IMG/VR virus record: IMGVR_UViG_3300014848_000022
Coordinates: 1 to 55,444 of that record
DNA length: 55,444 nucleotides
Strand: one strand, 5' to 3'
Source of the DNA: a virus
Lineage: Duplodnaviria > Caudoviricetes
Shown here: piece after piece, positions 3,450 to 53,794 of the stretch
Position numbering within the stretch: the stretch's first letter is position 1
How the letters are laid out: each line of letters opens with the position of its first letter
Program-made: the position numbers and the translations under genes
The notes under the pieces: model-generated
The model's database searches: none
The model's input: only the letters and a program-made list of their open reading frames with translations
Told to the model about the DNA's origin: nothing

Positions 3450-4799
3450 TCAGTTAAGCGCGATAGAGCGACGCCCGCGTTCGAGCATGGTCTTCAGGCC
3501 GACGCGAGAACCGGTATCGTTGTATGATTGATCGTATCCGGCCCATGCCGCCCGAAGCGATGCAAGGTCGGAGATTGCGGTCCCGCGCACAGTTCCCCAT
3601 GTTCCAGAGCCGCTCACCAGATACGAGTTCTGGTCGTTGATGCAGCCGCCCGCGTCGCCAGTCGCGCTGTCCCACGAGATCAGCGTGCCGATGGGCGCAT
3701 GAAACCGGCAATTTCGGACAGTGTTGTTCGCGACCTTCGAGTTGTTCTCGACGTTGATGCCGACACGCAGGGCCGGAGAAGTGGCATAGCGGTTATAGAC
3801 ATCCACATCCTCGACAAGGACGTTCTGGCAGGCCTTGAGATACAAACCGGACAAGCACCCGCCATAGACGGTCGCACGGGTGACGCGAACGCCGGTCGCA
3901 TTCTTGATCACGAGGCCCTGACCGTTCGATGTGTTGTTGCCGCCGAAGAATGAGCAGTCGATGACCGTAACGTTCGAGCACCCGGCGCCGATAACGGAAG
4001 CGTGGCCGGTCAACGCGACAGCCTTGACCCGCGTGATGATGCCGGTCGTGGTCTGGCCGGTCGAAGCATCTTCGCCGATCTGCATGCATGTCCCGGCGAC
4101 GGACGAGCCGTAGGCGCACAGGTCAAGTTCGAAGAGCTTGAAATCCAGCACGCCCTTCATGCGGAACGGAAAATAGCCGACGTGGAATTTGCACTGGACG
4201 AATGACAGGTCAGACACGAAACCAAGCTGGCTGTCGAAATTCACGCCAGCGATGGGATACGCCCCGATCTGTCGGATTTCACAGCCCTGCCAGAGGATTT
4301 TGCTGATCGTGTAGGTGCCCCCAGAGCCGGAGTCCCACACGCTCTGCATGGCGGTATTGGTCCCGCCAGATTGGCCGATCACATCCCAGCGGCAGCCGAT
4401 AAACCGGATGTTTGAAGTAGTCGTGTTGAGGAACCGCATGACAGACGTTGCCGTAGCCGAGTTGTTGCGGAACACGATGTTTCTGAACTGGATGAACGAG
4501 CAGGCGCCGACTTGGACCGAATAGTTCCCGCTGGTCCCGGTGATGACGACACTGCCCGGCGCCTGCGGATCGAGTAAGCTGTAATTCGGTTCGGGCTCGA
4601 CGAACACGAAGTTTGCGAAGTTCTGGGTCAGGTAGAGGTAGCCAGAGCCAGAGTTTTCGGCATAGGTTCCCCCTCCCATGTAGATCACATCGCCAGCGGC
4701 TGCCACAGAGAGTGCCTTGACGAGCGTTGCATAGGGCGCGCCGGTTGCACCGGTCCCGGTCGTGTCATTGCCGGTCGTGCGGACGTAAATCTCAGCCAT
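3450..4799 (-). CDS. Right-handed beta-helix (pectin lyase-like) protein, putative tailspike depolymerase
   Basis: N-terminal IYVRTTGNDTTGTG...PYAT motif and repeated NV(T/L)V-type beta-helix rungs. Confidence 0.75.
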   Translation of the reverse strand: MAEIYVRTTGNDTTGTGATGAPYATLVKALSVAAAGDVIYMGGGTYAENSGSGYLYLTQNFANFVFVEPEPNYSLLDPQAPGSVVITGTSGNYSVQVGACSFIQFRNIVFRNNSATATSVMRFLNTTTSNIRFIGCRWDVIGQSGGTNTAMQSVWDSGSGGTYTISKILWQGCEIRQIGAYPIAGVNFDSQLGFVSDLSFVQCKFHVGYFPFRMKGVLDFKLFELDLCAYGSSVAGTCMQIGEDASTGQTTTGIITRVKAVALTGHASVIGAGCSNVTVIDCSFFGGNNTSNGQGLVIKNATGVRVTRATVYGGCLSGLYLKACQNVLVEDVDVYNRYATSPALRVGINVENNSKVANNTVRNCRFHAPIGTLISWDSATGDAGGCINDQNSYLVSGSGTWGTVRGTAISDLASLRAAWAGYDQSYNDTGSRVGLKTMLERGRRSIALN

Positions 4800-23796: not shown

Positions 23797-24501
23797 TCAG
23801 AGCAGAAGACCCTGACGCTGCATAAAATCGATCGGATCGGAAGCGCGCTTGCGGCAATTGCAAGGCTTGCAGGTCCATTGCAGGTTCCTGCGGTCGTTAG
23901 AGCCTCCGCGCGACAGCGGGACAATATGGTCCAGTTCGCCGCCGCCGTTAAGCTTCGTCTTGCAGATTGCGCAGCGATCACGCTGCAATCGTCTGATTTC
24001 TTGAATATCCTCAAAGGTATGCCTTCCGCCGTTGCCGTTTTTCAGCGCCTTGCGGTTGGCAAAATAGGTCTTGTACGCGTCCCGGTTCTTGCGGCGGTAT
24101 TCACGATACCATGCTCGCATAGCTTCGGGGTCTTTGGCGCGGCGCGCTCGGTTCTGCGCGTTCACCAGCTCGCGGTTCGCTTGCCGGTAGACCCGAACGC
24201 GGCGCAAGTCATCCGCGCGCAACGATGGGTCAGCGCGCCACTGCTCTCTAGCGCGACGACAAATTTCGTCTCGGTTTTCAGCCCGGTAAGATCGGACCGC
24301 CGTTCTCGCTCGTTCAAGGTTGGCTGCGCGCCAGTCGGCGGCACGACGTCGGTGCCTTTCCGATTGTTCGGCCCGCTTGGCGGTCATGCAGGCTTTGCAA
24401 TGGGAGCGAGGCGCCTTTCGATCACCCCGACAATAGTACGCGCTATGCGGTTTTTCCGCTCCGCAACTGGCGCAAATCTTGGTAGGCTCAGCGTTAGCCA
24501 T
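23797..24501 (-). CDS. Free-standing HNH endonuclease
   Basis: N-terminal KICASC...HCKAC zinc motif, Arg-rich helix, CAIC...LDHIVPLSRGGSNDRRNLQWTCKPCNCRK. Confidence 0.92.
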   Translation of the reverse strand: MANAEPTKICASCGAEKPHSAYYCRGDRKAPRSHCKACMTAKRAEQSERHRRRAADWRAANLERARTAVRSYRAENRDEICRRAREQWRADPSLRADDLRRVRVYRQANRELVNAQNRARRAKDPEAMRAWYREYRRKNRDAYKTYFANRKALKNGNGGRHTFEDIQEIRRLQRDRCAICKTKLNGGGELDHIVPLSRGGSNDRRNLQWTCKPCNCRKRASDPIDFMQRQGLLL

Positions 24502-24598: not shown

Positions 24599-25627
24599 TT
24601 AGCCGGCGGTTACCGTGGGGCGGACAACCGCAACAACTGCATGAGCTGCGTCGGCTCGTTTCGCAACAATGGCGCTGAAATGGATTCCCACATACTGGCC
24701 CTGCAAGCCAGCCAGCAGGCCAAGCTGGAAGATGCGCGGCTTGAGGTTGCCGTCGCCCCCATGAACCACCGGGCGCTCGATCATCTTCTCGGTCATGATG
24801 ACCGCGAAATAATTCGAGTTGCCCGAGCCGGGCGCCGAGAAGCCATAGCTGGCGTCGGTGGTGGCGGGAAGGAACGGGTCGGGGATCAGCGGCAGGTCGC
24901 CCGCCTGCGTGCTGATGTATTTCACCGTGACGCCCGCCGTCACCTCGGCGGTACGCAGGTCGATGTGCGCGGCCTTGGCTTCACGGTCGATCAGGTCGTT
25001 CAGGATCGGGTTGATATAAATCGCGGTCGGGCGAACGGCCTGCGTGGTGTTGGCCAGCATGGCCGCGACCTTGGCCTTGATGCCGTCGATGATCGAAGCG
25101 CCCAGGCCAATCGTAGCCTGGTTGGTGATCTGGGTCAGCAGCCCGCAGAAGCTCTGCGTCGAGCTGTCGGTGATCGCCGTGGCCGTGCCGCTCCAGACCG
25201 CCGCCGCTTCGGTGATCGTGATACCCGACACGATGTCTTCGATGTCCTTGGATTCGACGTAGGAGAACTGGCCCTGCATGCGGGTAACGTCCACATCGAA
25301 CAGGCCGAAATTGGTCTGCGCGGTGACGGCCTTGATGTAGACCGAGCGCTCGGTGCGGGTCGGGCCCGACGCGGAGGGCGAGATCGAGCGCGGATCGGTG
25401 AACGTACCGGTCGCGATCGCGGTCTGGTCGAAGAAGCGGTGCGGGTGGCCGGTCGCCTGGGTTTCCGGGTTGCGGGAGAGGAAGATCGATTCGCGACGAA
25501 CGATATCGACGATTTCGGTTTCATACCGGTTCACCTCGATCGCGCCATTGCCGAGATAATCGGCGGCGGCCTTGAGCGAGATGAACTGAGCTTCGCTGAC
25601 GCGGTCGCCAGTGGCTGCAATGTTCAT
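24599..25627 (-). CDS. Major capsid protein
   Basis: 342 aa after protease/scaffold, strong codon bias, GVTVKYISTQAGDLPLIPDPF HK97-like C-terminal pattern. Confidence 0.85.
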   Translation of the reverse strand: MNIAATGDRVSEAQFISLKAAADYLGNGAIEVNRYETEIVDIVRRESIFLSRNPETQATGHPHRFFDQTAIATGTFTDPRSISPSASGPTRTERSVYIKAVTAQTNFGLFDVDVTRMQGQFSYVESKDIEDIVSGITITEAAAVWSGTATAITDSSTQSFCGLLTQITNQATIGLGASIIDGIKAKVAAMLANTTQAVRPTAIYINPILNDLIDREAKAAHIDLRTAEVTAGVTVKYISTQAGDLPLIPDPFLPATTDASYGFSAPGSGNSNYFAVIMTEKMIERPVVHGGDGNLKPRIFQLGLLAGLQGQYVGIHFSAIVAKRADAAHAVVAVVRPTVTAG

Positions 25628-47883: not shown

Positions 47884-48320
47884 GCACCGCCGACCGCCCG
47901 CCGCTGCTGTTCAAGTCTCACTTGGGCATGCTTCGCCCCGCCAATCGCGCGGCCGAGGAAGCCATGCGCGAGATCAAGGGCACCGTCCGCTGCGAAATCA
48001 AAGGTGGCATCGCCAACCAGCGGCGTCGCAGCCTGTATTGGGCGGTCGCGCATCTGGTCGTGCCGCTGCTGAACGATCTGCACGGCATGACGCTGGACGA
48101 GCAGGATCTCCACGATATCACCCGCGCCAAACTGCGCATGTGCGATGAGTTACGGCTACCCAGCGGGGAGGTTCACCGCAAGCTGTGGTCCACCAGCAAC
48201 CGTGCGATGAACGAGGCTGAACGGGCTGCCTTCACCGACAAGGCGCTGGCGCTTTGGTCGACATGGTGTGGCGTGGACGTGATGACCTTGCGCGCCGAAG
48301 CGGAAAGGCTGGCGGCATGA
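47880..48320 (+). CDS. NinB/DUF1367-like protein
   Basis: NQRRRSLYWA and STSNRAMNEAERAAF motifs. Confidence 0.65.
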   Translation: MSTADRPPLLFKSHLGMLRPANRAAEEAMREIKGTVRCEIKGGIANQRRRSLYWAVAHLVVPLLNDLHGMTLDEQDLHDITRAKLRMCDELRLPSGEVHRKLWSTSNRAMNEAERAAFTDKALALWSTWCGVDVMTLRAEAERLAA

Positions 48321-49432
48321 GCTGGTCCCCGCAACAGGAGCAGGCGATTGCTGCCGTGCGCGCCTGGCTAGCCGATCCGAGCGGCGCGCAGGTGTTCCGC
48401 ATGTTTGGATATGCCGGTACCGGCAAAACCACGCTGGCGAAGGAGCTGGCGGGCGAGGTCAAGGGTGCCGTCCTTTACGCAACCTTCACCGGCAAGGCCG
48501 CGCTCGTGCTGCGCAAGAAGGGCTGCGAGGGCGCATCGACGATCCACTCTCTGATCTACCGGGTGGAGGTGGACGACCGGACTGGTGAAGCCGACTTCAT
48601 CCTCGACCGCGATTGCGCGCTGGCGAATGCGGCTTTGCTCATCGTCGACGAGGTGTCGATGGTGGGTGAGGATCTCGCCAAGGATCTGCTCAGCTTTGGC
48701 CGTCGCATTCTGGTCTTGGGCGACCCTGCACAGCTACCGCCGGTCAAGGACGAAGGGTTCTTCATCAAGGCTGATCCCGACATCATGCTGACCGAGGTGC
48801 ACCGGCAGGCGCGCGATAACCCGATCATCCGCATGAGCATGGACATCCGGGCCGGAAAGCCGCTGGCAGCGGGCGCCTATGGCGACAGCCTGGTGATCGG
48901 CCAACGCCAAATTGACCGCGACGAGCTGGCCCAGCGCGTTCTCGGCGCCGACCAGCTGCTATGCGGCCTGAACCGGACTCGCACGAACTACAATGCCCGC
49001 ATTCGCCAGTTGAAGGGCCTGCACGGCCGCAATCAGCATTGGCATCCGGCAGCGGGCGATCGGCTGATCTGCCTGCGCAACAACAGCGACAAGCATCTGT
49101 TCAACGGCGGACTGTGGGATGCCGAAGACGTGACTGATCTGGGCGGCAAGCTGTCAGTGATCGCGCGATCGCTCGACGAGAAGCGCGACCCGGTCGAGGT
49201 CACTGTCTTCGAGCAGTTCTTCAACGGGTCCGAGAAGGACATCCCGTGGCAGGAAAAGCGCGGGACGCATGAGTTCACGTTCGGATGGGCGATCACCGTG
49301 CACAAGTCTCAGGGCAGCCAATGGTCGAATGTCATCGTGTTCGACGAGAGCGGCGCCTTCCGAGAAGCGCGCCGCAACCACCTCTACACCGCCGTCACCC
49401 GCGCTGCCGAGCGCGTCACGGTGATCGTGTGA
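48317..49432 (+). CDS. RecD-like SF1B DNA helicase
   Basis: GYAGTGKT, IVDEVSM, LGDPAQLPPV, HRQ, TVHKSQGSQW and YTAVTRA. Confidence 0.95.
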   Translation: MSWSPQQEQAIAAVRAWLADPSGAQVFRMFGYAGTGKTTLAKELAGEVKGAVLYATFTGKAALVLRKKGCEGASTIHSLIYRVEVDDRTGEADFILDRDCALANAALLIVDEVSMVGEDLAKDLLSFGRRILVLGDPAQLPPVKDEGFFIKADPDIMLTEVHRQARDNPIIRMSMDIRAGKPLAAGAYGDSLVIGQRQIDRDELAQRVLGADQLLCGLNRTRTNYNARIRQLKGLHGRNQHWHPAAGDRLICLRNNSDKHLFNGGLWDAEDVTDLGGKLSVIARSLDEKRDPVEVTVFEQFFNGSEKDIPWQEKRGTHEFTFGWAITVHKSQGSQWSNVIVFDESGAFREARRNHLYTAVTRAAERVTVIV

Positions 49433-49446
49433 ATCACGGAGCCACC

Positions 49447-49725
49447 ATGACCACCGCCACCCTACTGCGCCTGACCGATCCGGCTGCTGCCGAGGCGACC
49501 ATGGCCGTCATCGTCAACCGCCACCTTGAGATGAAGCGCACCATCACCGCAGACGACACGCTCGCTGACTTGGGCATCATCTGCGAGGCGCACCTGATCA
49601 GCATCCAGTGCGACGTGGAGGAGCAGTTGGTCGGCGATGAGCTGCCCCATGGCGCCGTGCGCGCCGACATGACGCTGGCTGATCTGGTGGCGCTGGTCGA
49701 GAGCACGCTGGGGAGGGCGGCATGA
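49447..49725 (+). CDS. Acyl carrier protein-like protein lacking the DSL serine
   Basis: ITADDTLADLG...DVEEQL.GDELP...MTLADLVALVE follows the ACP helix pattern; SD GGAG. Confidence 0.6.
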   Translation: MTTATLLRLTDPAAAEATMAVIVNRHLEMKRTITADDTLADLGIICEAHLISIQCDVEEQLVGDELPHGAVRADMTLADLVALVESTLGRAA

Positions 49726-50900
49726 CTATGACTTATGGCAGCATCTGCTCGGGCATTGAGGCGGCCAGCGTGGCTTGGCACGCGCTCGGATGGCGCCCGG
49801 CCTTCTTTTCCGAGATTGAGGCCTTTCCCTGCGCCGTTCTGGCGCACCGCTTCCCCGCCGTGCCCTGCCATGGCGACTTCACCACCATCGGGGCCGATCA
49901 ATATGGACCAATTGACCTTCTTGTCGGAGGAACCCCCTGCCAGTCGTTCAGCATCGCAGGCCTTAGAGGCGGACTGGACGACAGCCGTGGCAACCTCGCG
50001 CTTGAATTTCTGCGCCTTGCTGATCGCAAGCGCCCCCGATGGCTGGTCTGGGAGAACGTCCCCGGCGTCCTGTCGTCGAACGGAGGACGGGACTTTGGTT
50101 CCATCCTCGGGGGCATGGTCGAACTCGGGTATGGCGTCGCCTACCGAGTCCTGGACGCTCAGCACTTTGGAGTTCCACAGCGGCGCCGTCGCGTCTTCGT
50201 TGTCGGATATCTTGGAGACTGGCGCCGTGCCGCAGCAGTTCTTTTTGAGCGCCACAGCCTGTCGGGGCATTCTGCGCCGCGCCGCCAAGCGCGGTCGGCA
50301 GTTGCCGCCCTCACTGCAAACGGCGTTGGAACATGCGGCGTAGATGACAATCAAGGACAGGCCGGGCACCTGATCCCCGATATCGTAGGCCAAGCAATGA
50401 GCGCAAAGTGGGCCAAGGGCACGGCAGGGCCGGCAGGGGACGAGCACCACAATCTGATACCGGTAGCGTTCCCTGCTGAAATGTCCGGCACGCAATGCGC
50501 CTCTGCCGTAGATCGATCTCCCGCGCTGTCTGTCACGCACACGATGGCTGTGGCCTACCCGCTCCAAGAAGTCGGCAAGCGTACTGGCGTGAGCACTGAT
50601 GACCATCGCGCAGGTATCGGAATCGGCGGTGAGGCTGATCCCATGTTTACGCTGCAAGCCGGTGCACAGCATGGTGTTGGTACTGCCCATGCCGTCCGCC
50701 GCCTGACGCCCACGGAATGCGAGCGCTTGCAAGGCTTCCCCGATGGCTGGACCGACGTTCCCCATCGAGGAAAGCCTGCCGCCGACGGCCCACGCTACAA
50801 GGCGCTGGGTAACAGCATGGCCGTGCCCTGTATGCTTTGGCTGGGCCAGCGCATCCAACAGGTCGAAAATCTTGCCAGGGAGACGGCCTATGCCGCGTAG
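49722..50900 (+). CDS. DNA (cytosine-5) methyltransferase
   Basis: CSGIEA, GGTPCQSFS, ENV, QRRRRVF, RRLTPTECERLQGFPD and LGNSM. Confidence 0.96.
   Translation: MTMTYGSICSGIEAASVAWHALGWRPAFFSEIEAFPCAVLAHRFPAVPCHGDFTTIGADQYGPIDLLVGGTPCQSFSIAGLRGGLDDSRGNLALEFLRLADRKRPRWLVWENVPGVLSSNGGRDFGSILGGMVELGYGVAYRVLDAQHFGVPQRRRRVFVVGYLGDWRRAAAVLFERHSLSGHSAPRRQARSAVAALTANGVGTCGVDDNQGQAGHLIPDIVGQAMSAKWAKGTAGPAGDEHHNLIPVAFPAEMSGTQCASAVDRSPALSVTHTMAVAYPLQEVGKRTGVSTDDHRAGIGIGGEADPMFTLQAGAQHGVGTAHAVRRLTPTECERLQGFPDGWTDVPHRGKPAADGPRYKALGNSMAVPCMLWLGQRIQQVENLARETAYAA
49903..50343 (+). CDS. Nested alternative-frame ORF, putative second methyltransferase polypeptide
   Basis: 146 aa in the +1 frame ending SSLSDILE...FFLSATACRGILRRAAKRGRQLPPSLQTALE. 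Confidence 0.65.
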   Translation: MDQLTFLSEEPPASRSASQALEADWTTAVATSRLNFCALLIASAPDGWSGRTSPASCRRTEDGTLVPSSGAWSNSGMASPTESWTLSTLEFHSGAVASSLSDILETGAVPQQFFLSATACRGILRRAAKRGRQLPPSLQTALEHAA

Positions 50901-51384
50901 TCCCGACGAAGTGCGCAAGGCGAAACGCGAGTTCATGGCCCGCAAGCGCGCCGAAGATCCCGATGGCGCGCGCGCCTACAGCCGGAACTATCACCAGCGC
51001 AATCGAGAAAAGCAACTCGACAAGATGCGCAGCTACTACGCCCGCCGCTTTTTTTGGGGACGGGCCATGAAGTTGCGTGGTGCGGGGAAAGCTTCGACCG
51101 CAGATTTGGCGCGGCTTTGGAAGTTGCAGCGCGGTCAATGCGCCATGACCGGGCGCCGTCTCACGCGAGACACAGCCCATCTTGATCACATCGTTGCGAA
51201 GGCACGTGGGGGGACAGATGCGATCGGCAATCTTCGTTGGGTTTGCACAGAGGCCAACCTCGCCAAGCGCGAATTGAGCGACGCTGAGTTTCTGGCGCTG
51301 TGCTCTGACGTCATGGCTTGGATCGGAAACCGTATCGCGATGGTCGAGGCCATCACGGATGCGGCGCGAAAAGTCGTCGCATGA
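50890..51384 (+). CDS. Free-standing HNH endonuclease
   Basis: QRGQCAMTG...HLDHIVAKARGGTDAIGNLRWVCTEANLAK; SD GGAG. Confidence 0.88.
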   Translation: MPRSPDEVRKAKREFMARKRAEDPDGARAYSRNYHQRNREKQLDKMRSYYARRFFWGRAMKLRGAGKASTADLARLWKLQRGQCAMTGRRLTRDTAHLDHIVAKARGGTDAIGNLRWVCTEANLAKRELSDAEFLALCSDVMAWIGNRIAMVEAITDAARKVVA

Positions 51385-51515
51385 GCTTGGCCATGTGCCT
51401 GGAACGCCTGCGCAGCGAGACCTTTCCGGGCCTCGCCGACGCGATTGCGGAGCAGTGGGGGGCTTTGCTGCTCAACCCTGCCCAGCCCGATTTTTTCGAG
51501 AGGTTCGCGGCATGA
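51381..51515 (+). CDS. Small hypothetical protein or gene remnant
   Basis: ATGA-coupled at both ends; RSETFPGLADAIAEQWG. Confidence 0.45.
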   Translation: MSLAMCLERLRSETFPGLADAIAEQWGALLLNPAQPDFFERFAA

Positions 51516-51763
51516 CGATCTTGGCTTTCCTTTCCTCGAAATCTCCCAGCGAGCAGGTGTGGTGGGACTTGAACAAGTCGCGTTCTTTCTTGCGCGAGCG
51601 ATTGGATTGGAGTTTTGGCATACAGAAAAAGCTCCGGTTTAAGGGGCTGTCCAATCCCGCTGCCTGCGGTTTTGCAAGGCGGCCTTGGAGGGCTCCCCGC
51701 TCGATGGCGCCTTCTGTCACGGGTTTCCTCGTGCGGGATTTCCGGAGAGGGCTGTCCGCATGA
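51512..51763 (+). CDS. Hypothetical protein
   Basis: ATGA-coupled at both ends but atypical composition. Confidence 0.35.
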   Translation: MTILAFLSSKSPSEQVWWDLNKSRSFLRERLDWSFGIQKKLRFKGLSNPAACGFARRPWRAPRSMAPSVTGFLVRDFRRGLSA

Positions 51764-52329
51764 CCTGGCCCTTCGGCACCCTGCGCCCACTGTCCTATGG
51801 CGCAATCATCGCGGACCCTCCCTGGTACTTCCGCAACTACAGCGCCAAGGGCGAGGTGAAAAACCCGGTGGCCCATTACGACTGCATGGGGACCGCCGAC
51901 ATTGCCGCGCTGCCGGTTCACCAGCTGGCCGGGCCGGACTGCGCGCTGTTCATGTGGGCAACCGCGCCGATGCTGCCGGATGCCATCCATCTGATGCAGG
52001 CATGGGGCTTCACGTTCAAGTCGGCCGGCGCCTGGGCGAAGCAATCGAGCACGGGCGAGCGCTGGGCATTCGGCACCGGCTATTGCTTCCGCTCGGCCGC
52101 CGAGTTCTACCTGCTCGGCACGATCGGCAAGCCCAAGGTCAGGTCGCGATCGATCAGGAACCTGATCGTTGCTCCGGTGCGCGAGCATAGCCGTAAGCCT
52201 GACGCCTTGCACGCCGACGTCGAAGCGCTTTACCATGGCCCCTATGCCGAGCTGTTCGCGCGCCAAGCGCGGTCCGGGTGGGAAGCATGGGGTAACCAGA
52301 CCGATCTTTTTCCAAAGGAAGCAGCATGA
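51760..52329 (+). CDS. MT-A70-family N6-adenine methyltransferase
   Basis: IIADPPW, HYDCM, LFMW, WGF, HSRKPD and ELFAR...WGNQ. Confidence 0.95.
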   Translation: MTWPFGTLRPLSYGAIIADPPWYFRNYSAKGEVKNPVAHYDCMGTADIAALPVHQLAGPDCALFMWATAPMLPDAIHLMQAWGFTFKSAGAWAKQSSTGERWAFGTGYCFRSAAEFYLLGTIGKPKVRSRSIRNLIVAPVREHSRKPDALHADVEALYHGPYAELFARQARSGWEAWGNQTDLFPKEAA

Positions 52330-52607
52330 CCCAGCTTCTGACTGAGGCTGAGGCCGCCCGACGCCTGCTTATCAGCCTGTCGAGCCTGCGCGAGATCCGC
52401 AGGCGCGGCGGCATCCGCTATGTTGCCGTCTCGACCCGTCGAATCGCCTATCGACCCGAGGACTGCGACGATTATGTTCAGGCACATGTGCGGATCGAGC
52501 CGTCGCGGATGAACGAGAAGCCCAAGGGGAGGCAGAAGTCTGTCAGCGGGGCGCGGCCCGAGGCCAATGTCGTGCCGTTTAGCCAGCGAAAGAGGCAAGT
52601 GCGGTGA
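52326..52607 (+). CDS. Excisionase-like HTH protein
   Basis: LLTEAEAARRLLIS...IAYRPED; coupled to the integrase. Confidence 0.8.
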   Translation: MTQLLTEAEAARRLLISLSSLREIRRRGGIRYVAVSTRRIAYRPEDCDDYVQAHVRIEPSRMNEKPKGRQKSVSGARPEANVVPFSQRKRQVR

Positions 52608-53794
52608 CCATCTACCGGCCCAAGGGCAAGCCCTTCTACCACTACGACTTCCAGATGAAGGGCATCCGTTATCACGGATCGACGCACTGCGTGTCGAAGC
52701 GCGACGCGGAGCGTTACGAGCGCGACCTGCGCACCGAGATTGCATCGGGCCGCCGGGAGAAGCCGACGATCACCCTCGACCTAGGGGCGGGGCTCTATTG
52801 GGACGACAAGGGCCAATTCGAAGCGAACGGCGCGACCACCGAATACCAACTGGGCAACTTGGTGCGGCTGATCGGGGGGACAACCTTGGCCCACGACATC
52901 GACGATTTGACCGTCAGCCGGTTCGTTGCTGTGCGCCGATCAGAGCGCAAGCGCCGCGGCGTGCGCAAGGTCCGGCGCGTGAAGAAGGGTGAGCAACCTT
53001 CGCCACCGCCGCCCCTCGTGTCGAATGCGACCGTGAACCGCGAGGTTGAGTTGCTCAAACGGCTGATCCGGTTCCTGTCCGGCCGCTATCGAATCGGCGA
53101 GATCGACTGGAAAAAGCACAAGCTGGCGGAGAAGCAGGAGCGCATTCGCGAGGCATCGCCCGAGGAGGAAGATGCCCTGTTTGCCCGCCTGCGTGCGGAA
53201 GATGCGGACCTTGCCGACCTGGTTGAGTTTTCCTTGCTCTCAGGCCAGCGCAAGAACGCGATCGTGACGCTGCTATGGTCGAAGATCGACCTCAAGCGCG
53301 GTACTGCCTCGGTCCACACCAAGGGCGACATCTGGCACACCTTCCCGCTGACCCAGCGCATGAAGGAGATCATCGCCAACCGCCCCAAGAAGGACAGTGG
53401 CGGCTTCGTGTTCAGCTATGTCTGCAAGCGGCCACGCCCTGAGAAGCCGGGTAAGCCTCAACGCCTGGCCGGTCACCGCTACCCCTACAGCAAACAGGGC
53501 TGGGACCGGACTTGGCGGCGCATGCTCAAGGAGGCAGGGATCACCGATTTCCGCTTCCACGACCTGCGCCATACCAGCGCCACGCGCCTTGTACGATCAA
53601 GCGGAAACCTCAAGGCAGCGCAGAAGCTGCTCGGCCATGCGCGCATCGAGACGACGGCCCGATATGCCCATGTGACGGGCGACGATCTGCTCGAAATTAT
53701 GGAAAATGCACACCACTCCCGACATAGTCCCGACCAAGGGCAATTGGGTGAGGTGGAAAATCTAGCGAAACCAACGCTTAGGCGGGTAAAGTGA
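52604..53794 (+). CDS. int: Tyrosine integrase
   Basis: Catalytic set GQR, TKG, FHDLRH, LGH and RYAH. Confidence 0.96.
   Translation: MTIYRPKGKPFYHYDFQMKGIRYHGSTHCVSKRDAERYERDLRTEIASGRREKPTITLDLGAGLYWDDKGQFEANGATTEYQLGNLVRLIGGTTLAHDIDDLTVSRFVAVRRSERKRRGVRKVRRVKKGEQPSPPPPLVSNATVNREVELLKRLIRFLSGRYRIGEIDWKKHKLAEKQERIREASPEEEDALFARLRAEDADLADLVEFSLLSGQRKNAIVTLLWSKIDLKRGTASVHTKGDIWHTFPLTQRMKEIIANRPKKDSGGFVFSYVCKRPRPEKPGKPQRLAGHRYPYSKQGWDRTWRRMLKEAGITDFRFHDLRHTSATRLVRSSGNLKAAQKLLGHARIETTARYAHVTGDDLLEIMENAHHSRHSPDQGQLGEVENLAKPTLRRVK

Follow-up and report, generated by a model that had tools for sequence, protein, structure and literature searches.

The window, by which we mean the whole 55,444-nt stretch of Caudoviricetes DNA that was analysed, carries a nuclease gene directly behind a full-length methyltransferase gene, followed in turn by a displaced duplicate of the methyltransferase 3' end. 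The first ORF (49722-50900, + strand) encodes a C5-cytosine DNA methyltransferase, with a PF00145 match of 182.3 bits over residues 4-379, more than 8000 homologues and a translation that contains GGTPCQ (PCQ motif IV) and ALGNSMAVP (GN motif X); it ends in GNSMAVPCMLWLGQRIQQVENLARETAYAA and a stop codon. The HNH ORF begins with the ATG at 50890, overlapping the methyltransferase end by 11 nt in a different frame, and runs to 51384, with LCSDVMAWIGNRIAMVEAITDAARKVVA as its C-terminus before the stop. An AGGGAG read from the sequence at 50877-50882 (+), 7 nt upstream of this ATG, is a Shine-Dalgarno-like site that probably serves translation of the HNH gene. The HNH stop codon (TGA, 51382-51384) overlaps, as ATGA, the ATG of a putative gene, a 44-codon orphan ORF (51381-51515, +), for which no homologue was found by tblastn in 95 loci or in the protein collection.

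Matches to Pfam and PHROG, together with invariant residues, place the nuclease body, of the HNH (His-Me finger) type, in residues 1-140 (50890-51309, +). The HNH protein matched PF01844 over residues 94-126 (23.7 bits, cut-off 21.4), PF14279 with 26.0 bits, under its cut-off of 27.5, and 14 PHROG nuclease families (best E 1.4e-17). Residues D99, H100, N114 and N123, which we take to be the catalytic D-H ... N ... N/H residues, were invariant across 32 homologues. Its AlphaFold model (pLDDT 94) contained one confident helix spanning residues 131-163; as for the beta-beta-alpha-metal fold, the PDB entries that it matched best were the Gme HNH nicking endonuclease and HNH domains of Cas9, and these matches were weak (E at least 1.1e-3, TM 0.3-0.6). 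Cultured phages yielded no close relative of the protein, and the DNA match there was confined to the methyltransferase part. The PHROG (HNH, endonuclease VII) and Pfam HNH matches stopped at residue 153 or earlier, and none of 19 distant matches in phage GenBank entries reached beyond residue 148. On these grounds the last 24 HNH codons are foreign to the nuclease fold family.

The initial annotation had noted that the C-termini of the two proteins share 7 of 14 residues. BLASTP returned this same match, HNH 142-155 against methyltransferase 371-384, with an E value of 0.038 that is marginal alone for a single comparison. As DNA, the two tails of the window are identical at 32/69 positions, and a repeat search of the window did not detect them as a direct repeat. 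A pairwise match this weak and a DNA identity this low would fit two amphipathic C-terminal helices that are alike by accident. Comparison of profiles argues otherwise: hhalign, run with 32 HNH homologues against 25 methyltransferases, gave a single match (probability 93.4%, E 2.4e-7), which joined HNH 139-163 to methyltransferase 368-392 end to end, each 0-1 residues short of the C-terminus. Likewise, phrog_23296, a profile of a methyltransferase C-terminal fragment, matched not only the methyltransferase (residues 354-391, E 2e-12) but also HNH residues 139-160 (E 7e-4).

Among the 120 HNH homologues listed, 104 carried the tail motif, and for 78 of these 104 no other HNH tail gave a better match than the best one in a set of 118 methyltransferase tails. 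The HNH tail of P0029 is identical to the methyltransferase tail of P0139 at 21/21 residues, the variable last ones included, in two sequences that could be neighbours, and the tail of P0068 agrees with that of methyltransferase P0206 at 21/24. Identity of at least 75% to a methyltransferase distal tail was found for 7 of 49 variable distal HNH tails, compared with 0.095 on average and never more than 2 in 200 shuffles. Tails have been exchanged repeatedly between HNH genes and methyltransferases. The identical 21-residue tails, the agreement of the shuffling control and the DNA-level matches between HNH and methyltransferase tails (L020 and G119, below) all speak against an accidental likeness of the two helices, which we consider extremely improbable.

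The left junction was mapped by scoring, codon by codon, the match to a consensus built from 72 HNH-free methyltransferase tails. It falls after the Pro codon CCC (50826-50828) that closes the motif X codons YKALGNSMAVP (50796-50828, +), and the first codon past it (TGT, Cys) starts at 50829. HNH tails fit the same consensus from the Val codon on and are at random level before Val; in the window, the right junction is at 51310, one codon before the Met codon at 51313. Given the family-wide tail and junction evidence, the window is read as carrying a 481-nt cassette (50829-51309, +) between the Pro and Val of GNSMAVP/VM.WIG, the slash marking the junction. The cassette contains a substitute methyltransferase tail, CMLWLGQRIQQVENLARETAYAA plus TAG (50829-50900, +), which is non-canonical (PCMLWLG versus PVM.WIG) and encloses the putative ribosome-binding site, and then the HNH body. 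It is followed by the displaced native methyltransferase tail, VMAWIGNRIAMVEAITDAARKVVA (51310-51384, +), in the HNH frame and with the TGA stop. For annotation, this means a hybrid methyltransferase gene, in which a resident body is joined to 23 final codons brought by the cassette, and an HNH gene whose final 24 codons are foreign. The length of the cassette is 1 mod 3, and its excision would bring 51310 into the methyltransferase frame. An intein and a group I or II intron were considered and rejected: the methyltransferase frame stops at TAG 50898-50900 and the insert, of 481 nt, is 1 mod 3, so that there is no in-frame insertion, and no Rfam family of introns or other RNAs matched 50600-51800 at E values up to 1.

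Against the DNA consensus of HNH-free methyltransferases the two tails of the window tie, with 27/39 each, so that the window alone does not tell which of them is native and the assignment rests on the family. By blastn, 51310-51350 matched the tail of the HNH-free locus L020 (80% over 41 nt). A DNA search in 401 genomes of the bacterial family of locus L001 returned short matches only, the useful one being G119, an HNH-free methyltransferase. It agrees with the L001 methyltransferase at 36/42 nt before the junction and, past the junction, with the HNH tail of L001 at 40/69 nt versus 32/69 for the substitute tail. The ATGA stop/start overlap occurs in 10/16 HNH tails and 36/72 HNH-free methyltransferases, as against 1/16 substitute tails. 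The displaced tail thus looks native, in that it resembles the ends of element-free methyltransferases and has mostly kept the ATGA.

Upstream DNA was visible for 17 distinct tail-bearing HNH loci, and 16 of these directly follow a C5-methyltransferase. In the remaining one, L004, the tail-bearing HNH gene adjoins a portal-like gene, with no methyltransferase. The initial annotation had held that the same tail in an unrelated context would mark it as native to the nuclease; such a context was seen this once, and we read it as a probable secondary move of the element because the methyltransferase origin of the tail is otherwise well shown. Strict adjacency could also mean that the HNH protein is a functional partner, a restriction-like or McrA-like nuclease paired with the methyltransferase in restriction-modification or exclusion, and not selfish. 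Several homologues bear the automatic name '5-methylcytosine-specific restriction endonuclease McrA', and the model has a weak fold likeness to EcoKMcrA, among many HNH matches. Yet the nuclease is rare beside these methyltransferases, being present in 0/80 loci retrieved by the methyltransferase alone and in 1/401 genomes of one bacterial family. Moreover, the window methyltransferase matches those of L002, L003, L010 and L014 at the ends only; their central regions differ, so one nuclease family would have to serve many specificities. A partnership of this sort, which we regard as very unlikely, would also leave the duplicated tail, the recoded substitute tail and the tail exchange without explanation.

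As the initial annotation had predicted, HNH-free relatives end in VM.WIG.RI..VE..: the canonical PVM.WIG was found in 59 of 71 HNH-free methyltransferase tails versus 0 of 12 HNH-linked ones (Fisher 2.8e-8, relatedness ignored), and it was also absent from all 5 additional HNH-linked loci. Tail GC was below body GC in 12/12 HNH-linked methyltransferases, and the drop exceeded that in free tails (Mann-Whitney 1e-4). On a quick HNH tree of 15 rows, the VPC-type substitute tail, present in 7 rows, formed one clade with 1 change (0/500 shuffles as low; SH-aLRT 87, below the 95 mark), whereas on a methyltransferase N-terminal tree of the same kind and size it needed 5 changes (377/500 shuffles as low). 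The tail travels with the nuclease, and on these trees its type is apparently inherited with the HNH gene and not with the methyltransferase body. HNH-linked methyltransferases were scattered on a quick tree of 89 N-terminal domains, where their 12 rows required 11 changes against a mean of 11.5 in shuffles. A block of 45 columns upstream of the tail, examined for a co-conversion tract, showed weak clustering of linked alleles (12 changes versus 13.9, with 46/500 shuffles as low).

The junction LC.DV/M.WIG is common to most of the HNH homologues listed, indicating that the element carries the in-frame fusion as a lasting feature; since nearly all homologues share it, the fusion arose once or rarely. 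The initial annotation had proposed that a cassette entered the methyltransferase 3' end, provided a substitute C-terminus and captured the old one in frame, a reading that stands for the family as a whole and fails as a fresh event of this prophage. The shared junction would also be expected if one old fusion had become native, with the tail acting as a working helix (for example, in dimerisation or DNA binding) within a fixed methyltransferase-HNH module and no ongoing homing. Retention of the tail in L004, away from any methyltransferase, fits such a history, as does the confident, continuous helix 131-163; nor are the HNH tails decayed, their fit to the HNH-free consensus being about that of the HNH-free tails themselves. 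Judging from the model, the HNH tail could by now be a working protein part. Nevertheless, an old native fusion agrees poorly with the sharing of variable distal residues with particular methyltransferase tails, which far exceeds what shuffling predicts, with the scatter of HNH-linked methyltransferases on the N-terminal tree and with a substitute-tail type that follows the HNH gene instead of the methyltransferase. Tail-less and internally deleted forms (P0026, P0036, P0093, P0101, P0114, P0117 and L009), and two with the junction a few residues earlier (P0116 and P0123), also count against it. We judge this history unlikely, and in part compatible with homing, since a helix with a function does not preclude homing.

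None of the distant tail-less HNH relatives examined adjoined a methyltransferase. No gene with a VAEWIGRRI tail and upstream DNA was found in the viral or metagenome scan, L127 being cut at its start; this is a second tail type, carried by more distant HNH relatives.

Regions downstream of 11 HNH loci had nothing in common among themselves (tblastx, 1e-6), and their comparison with 75 HNH-free loci produced four scattered single matches, each of them away from the equivalent position. A clean empty site, with both flanks the same in the presence and absence of the element, was not found among these loci, the downstream genes differing in every comparison. Close N-terminal relatives without the HNH gene were L092 (92% over 583 nt), L018 and L020, with G119 as a further HNH-free allele, and in the closest pairs at the DNA level the matches were confined to the methyltransferase and the tails.

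We consider it likely that the HNH protein serves as the nuclease of a homing-type element, a unit that would consist of the HNH gene together with the substitute 3' end of the methyltransferase, sited at GNSMAVP/VM.WIG. The element's insertion would have separated the Pro codon from the Val codon close to the end of a C5-cytosine methyltransferase gene of a phage. The methyltransferase would then end on the recoded tail of the element, the same tail bearing the stop codon and the HNH ribosome-binding site, while the resident tail would have been displaced 481 nt downstream, to be read in frame as the last 24 HNH codons and still provide a stop codon overlapping the next ORF. Active homing is inferred by us from analogy with the yeast WHO elements described below. 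On that analogy, the nuclease may cut alleles that lack the HNH gene, at the conserved PVM.WIG codons or close by, the codons around GNSMAVP/VM.WIG being, as a guess, its candidate target, and the element would be copied in from a donor during repair. Of the two crossovers, the left would lie within the methyltransferase body and the right in or past the displaced tail, and the variant substitute tail would protect the new allele from cutting.

More tentatively, the displaced tail may be a maintained dual-use part, a right-hand homology arm as DNA and a required C-terminal nuclease helix as protein, a possibility that we find doubtful. If true, the element could home into any methyltransferase of this very large family regardless of the downstream DNA, and the protein end would also pass translation to the next gene. 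Dual use would explain why the tail is open, why it is as conserved as working methyltransferase tails and why it is retained in L004.

In T4-like phages, free-standing homing endonuclease genes lie beside conserved targets and spread by break repair with co-conversion (intronless homing). The cassette resembles them in that its nuclease gene is free-standing and adjoins a conserved target. The T4-like genes sit between genes and are not known to break into coding sequence and restore it with a duplicated end. No account of such replaced gene ends in phages was found in open-access papers and preprints.

According to the study that described WHO elements in yeasts of the genera Torulaspora and Lachancea (Coughlan et al. 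2020, eLife, PMC7282813), the nuclease gene directly follows a full-length target, each integration swaps the target's 3' end for a resistance-conferring copy, and the 5' and 3' parts of target genes give discordant trees. The phage locus is similar in having the nuclease gene behind a full-length target with an element-borne, replaced 3' end. The WHO nuclease is an intein-like HO relative, whereas the phage element has a small HNH nuclease, a phage or prophage host and a C5-methyltransferase as target, and replaces only about 24 codons. The displaced end, a decaying fragment in WHO, is here the in-frame C-terminus of the nuclease itself and keeps the stop/start overlap. For WHO, cleavage has been demonstrated, whereas for the phage element it is proposed from sequence.

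The order of foreign C-terminus, endonuclease ORF and displaced native C-terminus is also that of the gene hybrids formed by mobile endonuclease ORFs (mORFs) in fungal mitochondria: atp6, atp9, cox2 and nad3 in Glomus (Beaudet et al. 2013, PMC3630166), the Allomyces macrogynus atp6 hybrid cited there, and atp6 and cob C-terminal duplicates beside endonuclease ORFs (PMC6279837). In these hybrids, as with the displaced tails in phages, the native copy is the closer one to element-free relatives. The genomes concerned are those of organelles, the nucleases are of the LAGLIDADG or GIY-YIG type and in many cases the native end is not expressed; the phage element differs from these hybrids in its location, its HNH nuclease and an in-frame fusion conserved across the family. 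The phage cassette corresponds to the yeast WHO and fungal mORF types, and it links phage elements with yeast WHO/HO and fungal mitochondrial gene hybrids. The likeness suggests that the replacement of gene ends arose independently with different nuclease families. The family-wide evidence indicates that phage HNH genes can occupy coding sequence, with neither intron nor intein, by means of a recoded replacement gene end, and the cassette would explain mosaic 3' ends of phage methyltransferases.

The initial annotation had attributed the same footprint to three HNH genes, those of the methyltransferase, spanin and capsid cases, a claim of three cases that our analysis, which covered the capsid-adjacent gene besides the methyltransferase one, did not confirm. 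BLASTP of this capsid-adjacent, second HNH protein (23797-24501, minus strand) against the upstream capsid protein gave nothing (E 15), so that no in-frame capture of the capsid end was found, in-frame capture being what this search covers.

Hidden HNH insertions of the ShiLan type in phage methylase genes (Arsenault et al. 2025, PMC11855218) likewise invade the coding sequence of a phage DNA methylase and involve neither intron nor intein. In ShiLan, the methylase frame continues through the insert, which contains the HNH gene in another frame, and no gene end is duplicated; in the cassette, the methyltransferase comes to an early end on the substitute tail, with its old tail displaced. Inserts of the ShiLan type are also present in the methyltransferase family studied here, in L033, L083 and G119.

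Within the window, a C5-cytosine DNA methyltransferase gene of 392 codons (49722-50900, plus strand; PF00145, 182 bits) runs into a 164-aa HNH gene (50890-51384, plus strand; PF01844, 23.7 bits against a cut-off of 21.4). The two overlap by 11 nt in different frames, an AGGGAG lies 7 nt 5' of the HNH start, and the HNH stop is in turn overlapped, as ATGA, by the ATG of a 44-codon ORF (51381-51515, plus strand). The same strand carries ORFs that we named by eye as RecD-like helicase, from its translation (48254-49432), and as integrase-like (52604-53794), together with an MT-A70 methyltransferase (about 51760-52329) and a small ORF (52326-52607).

The initial annotation held that the HNH protein ends in a second copy of the methyltransferase C-terminus. 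BLASTP recovered this match (HNH residues 142-155 against methyltransferase residues 371-384, 7/14 identical, E 0.038), which is marginal when taken alone, and the DNA of the two tails is identical at 32/69 positions. At the family level the similarity is firm: a profile-profile comparison of 32 HNH homologues with 25 methyltransferases produced a single hit (93.4% probability, E 2.4e-7), aligning HNH 139-163 with methyltransferase 368-392, the C-terminal ends of both. Likewise, a PHROG profile built on a C-terminal piece of a methyltransferase matched both tails of the window, and the PHROG and Pfam matches to the HNH family ended at HNH residue 153 or before.

A search of a 90%-clustered collection identified 151 HNH relatives (E ≤ 1e-3), and a loose M.WIG..I motif closes 104 of the 120 listed; the methyltransferase family is far larger, with at least 8000 members scored. 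When every tail was anchored at the M.WIG motif, the best of 118 methyltransferase tails matched at least as well as the best other HNH tail for 78 of the 104 HNH tails. Some pairs are nearly or fully identical, variable end included (HNH P0029 and methyltransferase P0139, 21/21 residues; P0068 and P0206, 21/24; P0010 and P0175, 19/21), and the end of the HNH tail in locus L010, ...ALPHHQKAAA, is common to methyltransferases P0163 and P0176. Over the variable distal part, 7/49 HNH tails were at least 75% identical to the distal part of some methyltransferase tail, as compared with a mean of 0.095 and a maximum of 2 in 200 shuffles of the methyltransferase residues. DNA searches paired window positions 51310-51350 with the methyltransferase tail of the HNH-free locus L020 (80% over 41 nt), the L001 HNH tail with the L092 methyltransferase tail (89% over 27 nt), and the L010 HNH tail with the HNH-free methyltransferase tail of L083. 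Judged from these comparisons, the HNH tail comes from a methyltransferase, and exchange of such tails has happened repeatedly. In the AlphaFold model (pLDDT 94 overall), a single confident helix covers HNH residues 131-163, suggesting that the tail may matter to the HNH protein.

HNH loci came from collections of genomes, viruses and metagenomes; each distinct locus contributed a single count, and L127, which is cut at its start, was excluded. Upstream DNA is visible for 17 tail-bearing HNH genes, and 16 of these directly follow a methyltransferase of the same family, with an overlap of 8-17 nt or a spacer of 89-166 nt. The overlap occurs in the window and five other loci; the spacers measure 89 nt (L002, L008 and L013), 109 nt (L010 and L011) and 166 nt (L014). 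The exception, L004, has a portal-like gene on the opposite strand as upstream neighbor and no methyltransferase was seen there; the tail can stay with the HNH gene away from a methyltransferase. Conversely, in L009 the HNH gene follows a methyltransferase but lacks the tail. Genes downstream of 11 HNH loci had nothing in common with one another, leaving the methyltransferase as the sole common context. The HNH gene was absent from all 80 loci fetched by the methyltransferase alone and occurred in only 1/401 genomes of the bacterial family that includes L001. None of the more distant, tail-less HNH relatives that could be placed adjoins a methyltransferase, and none of 19 distant phage matches in GenBank extends beyond HNH residue 148. 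Among 150 representatives (50% clustering), most of the distant HNH proteins, assessed by eye without a count, end no more than about a dozen residues past LC.DV.

To locate the junction, tails were compared codon by codon with the consensus of 72 HNH-free methyltransferase tails. In 16 HNH tails, agreement with the consensus began at the Val codon of VM.WIG (0.79-0.94 at conserved codons), and ahead of that codon it was close to chance. The 16 methyltransferase tails preceding an HNH gene matched well upstream and deviated at codons -5, -1, 0, +1, +3, +5 and +6. Together these put the insertion point in GNSMAVP|VM.WIG after the Pro and before the Val. The window's insert covers 50829-51309 (481 nt, 1 mod 3); by coordinate arithmetic, its removal would bring 51310 into the methyltransferase frame, giving a canonical end and an ATGA overlap with the 51381 ORF. 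The usual junction in HNH homologues is LC.DV|M.WIG, with variants retaining a few extra methyltransferase residues (P0116, ...VPPAMRWIG; P0123, ...APCMSWIG); two HNH proteins, P0026 and P0036, carry an internal deletion.

The tail now ending the methyltransferase differs from that of HNH-free genes. The canonical PVM.WIG was found in 0/12 distinct HNH-linked methyltransferases versus 59/71 HNH-free ones (Fisher 2.8e-8, ignoring relatedness), and five additional linked loci likewise had non-canonical tails. The GC content of this substitute tail was lower than that of the gene body in 12/12 loci, a drop larger in linked than in HNH-free genes (Mann-Whitney 1e-4), and in GC-rich loci a conserved Arg was encoded by AGA/AGG in 5/10 substitute tails versus 5/39. 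The ATGA stop/start overlap was present in 36/72 HNH-free methyltransferases, 10/16 HNH tails and 1/16 substitute tails. In a quick tree built from the N-terminal domains of 89 methyltransferases, the 12 linked genes were scattered (11 changes, shuffled mean 11.5), some with close HNH-free neighbors, such as L001 with L092. In a quick tree of 15 HNH bodies (excluding L102 and L124, missed by the extraction pattern, and L004, which has no methyltransferase), the seven loci with VPC-type tails formed one clade (1 change, SH-aLRT 87, 0/500 shuffles as low), and the three PVVRW-type loci formed a starred clade. On the corresponding tree of 15 methyltransferase N-terminal domains (excluding L002 and L102), the VPC type required 5 changes, with 377/500 shuffles as low. 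Motif, composition, coupling and trees together show that it is the substitute tail that moves with the nuclease; the displaced tail has the look of the resident one.

A three-way comparison within one bacterial family yields, at the level of aligned DNA, the same pattern as these four lines. Before the junction, the methyltransferase of genome G119, which lacks the tail HNH, matched the L001 methyltransferase at 36/42 nt versus 14/42 for the L001 HNH region; after it, G119 matched the L001 HNH tail at 40/69 versus 32/69 for the substitute tail. Some results point the other way. In the window, both tails were equally close to the HNH-free DNA consensus (27/39 each); the assignment of native and substitute tails rests on the family and not on this locus. 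Clustering of linked alleles in the block just upstream of the tail was weak, and neither the loci compared in DNA nor the 401-genome search provided a pair sharing both flanks, with and without the element. The tail retained in L004, the modeled helix and the orphan status of the 51381 ORF weigh on this side too. Many methyltransferases, among them that of L017, an HNH-free locus, and the proteins P0132, P0138 and P0168, begin their tail with VPC, as cassette-borne tails typically do, and end it with a native-type distal part (...RIA.VEAL...AA); they may be what remained when recombination between the two tails removed an HNH gene.

An intron or intein was rejected on three grounds: the stop of the methyltransferase frame at 50898-50900, an insert length that does not keep the frame, and the lack of any Rfam match. 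The anatomy agrees point for point with a model that was proposed for the WHO elements of yeasts and has been demonstrated in part (PMC7282813). There, the nuclease cleaves a target gene that lacks the element; the repair that follows copies in both the nuclease gene and the resistance-conferring 3' end upstream of it, and moves the former 3' end downstream, to a position where it acts as the recombination site. Fungal mitochondrial endonuclease ORFs have been described with the same layout (PMC6279837, PMC3630166). By analogy, the HNH nuclease would cut HNH-free alleles at or near the PVM.WIG codons, and the changes in the substitute tail would protect the invaded allele. Unlike in the WHO and mitochondrial cases, the displaced end here forms an in-frame fusion with the nuclease, has stayed open and conserved, and still hands translation over to the next gene. 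Searches of open-access papers and preprints turned up no phage with such a layout; the closest phage paper, on ShiLan (PMC11855218), describes an HNH sitting in a methylase gene in a different way.

A second kind of HNH invasion affects the same methyltransferase family: about 196 inserted codons, in frame and free of stops, separate RLQGFP from GYT.VP and hold a 181-aa HNH ORF in another frame (L033, 4141-4728, with the HNH ORF at 4167-4712; L083, about 3991-4580). G119 carries it too, with the same ...CSYEIRFTTH.GYT... junction, in its methyltransferase ORF (712-2649 of L143). This insert resembles the 'hidden HNH' of ShiLan (PMC11855218). Distant HNH relatives (~40-46% identity) share the junction after LC.DV and continue with another tail, ...VAEWIGRRI... 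(P0275, P0289, P0292-P0294, P0303, P0307, P0334, P0353, and L127 at 3-446). This tail might have been captured from a different methyltransferase subfamily; no locus with upstream DNA was recovered for it.

The window contains a second HNH gene (234 aa, 23797-24501, minus strand), just downstream of a capsid-like gene (24599-25627, minus strand) and 34% identical to residues 9-135 of the HNH protein studied here, with no methyltransferase-like tail. The capsid case, put forward in the initial annotation as showing the same footprint, is not an in-frame capture, since BLASTP of this HNH against the capsid-like protein gave nothing (E 15). The 51381 ORF is an orphan in the loci and protein collection searched, with a weak match to positions 201-226 of 247 of the PHROG 'DNA methyltransferase' profile phrog_757 (E 7e-4), and the ~245 nt separating it from the MT-A70 gene contain no convincing gene. 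The region 51381-51760 may be what is left of another methyltransferase end after rearrangement.
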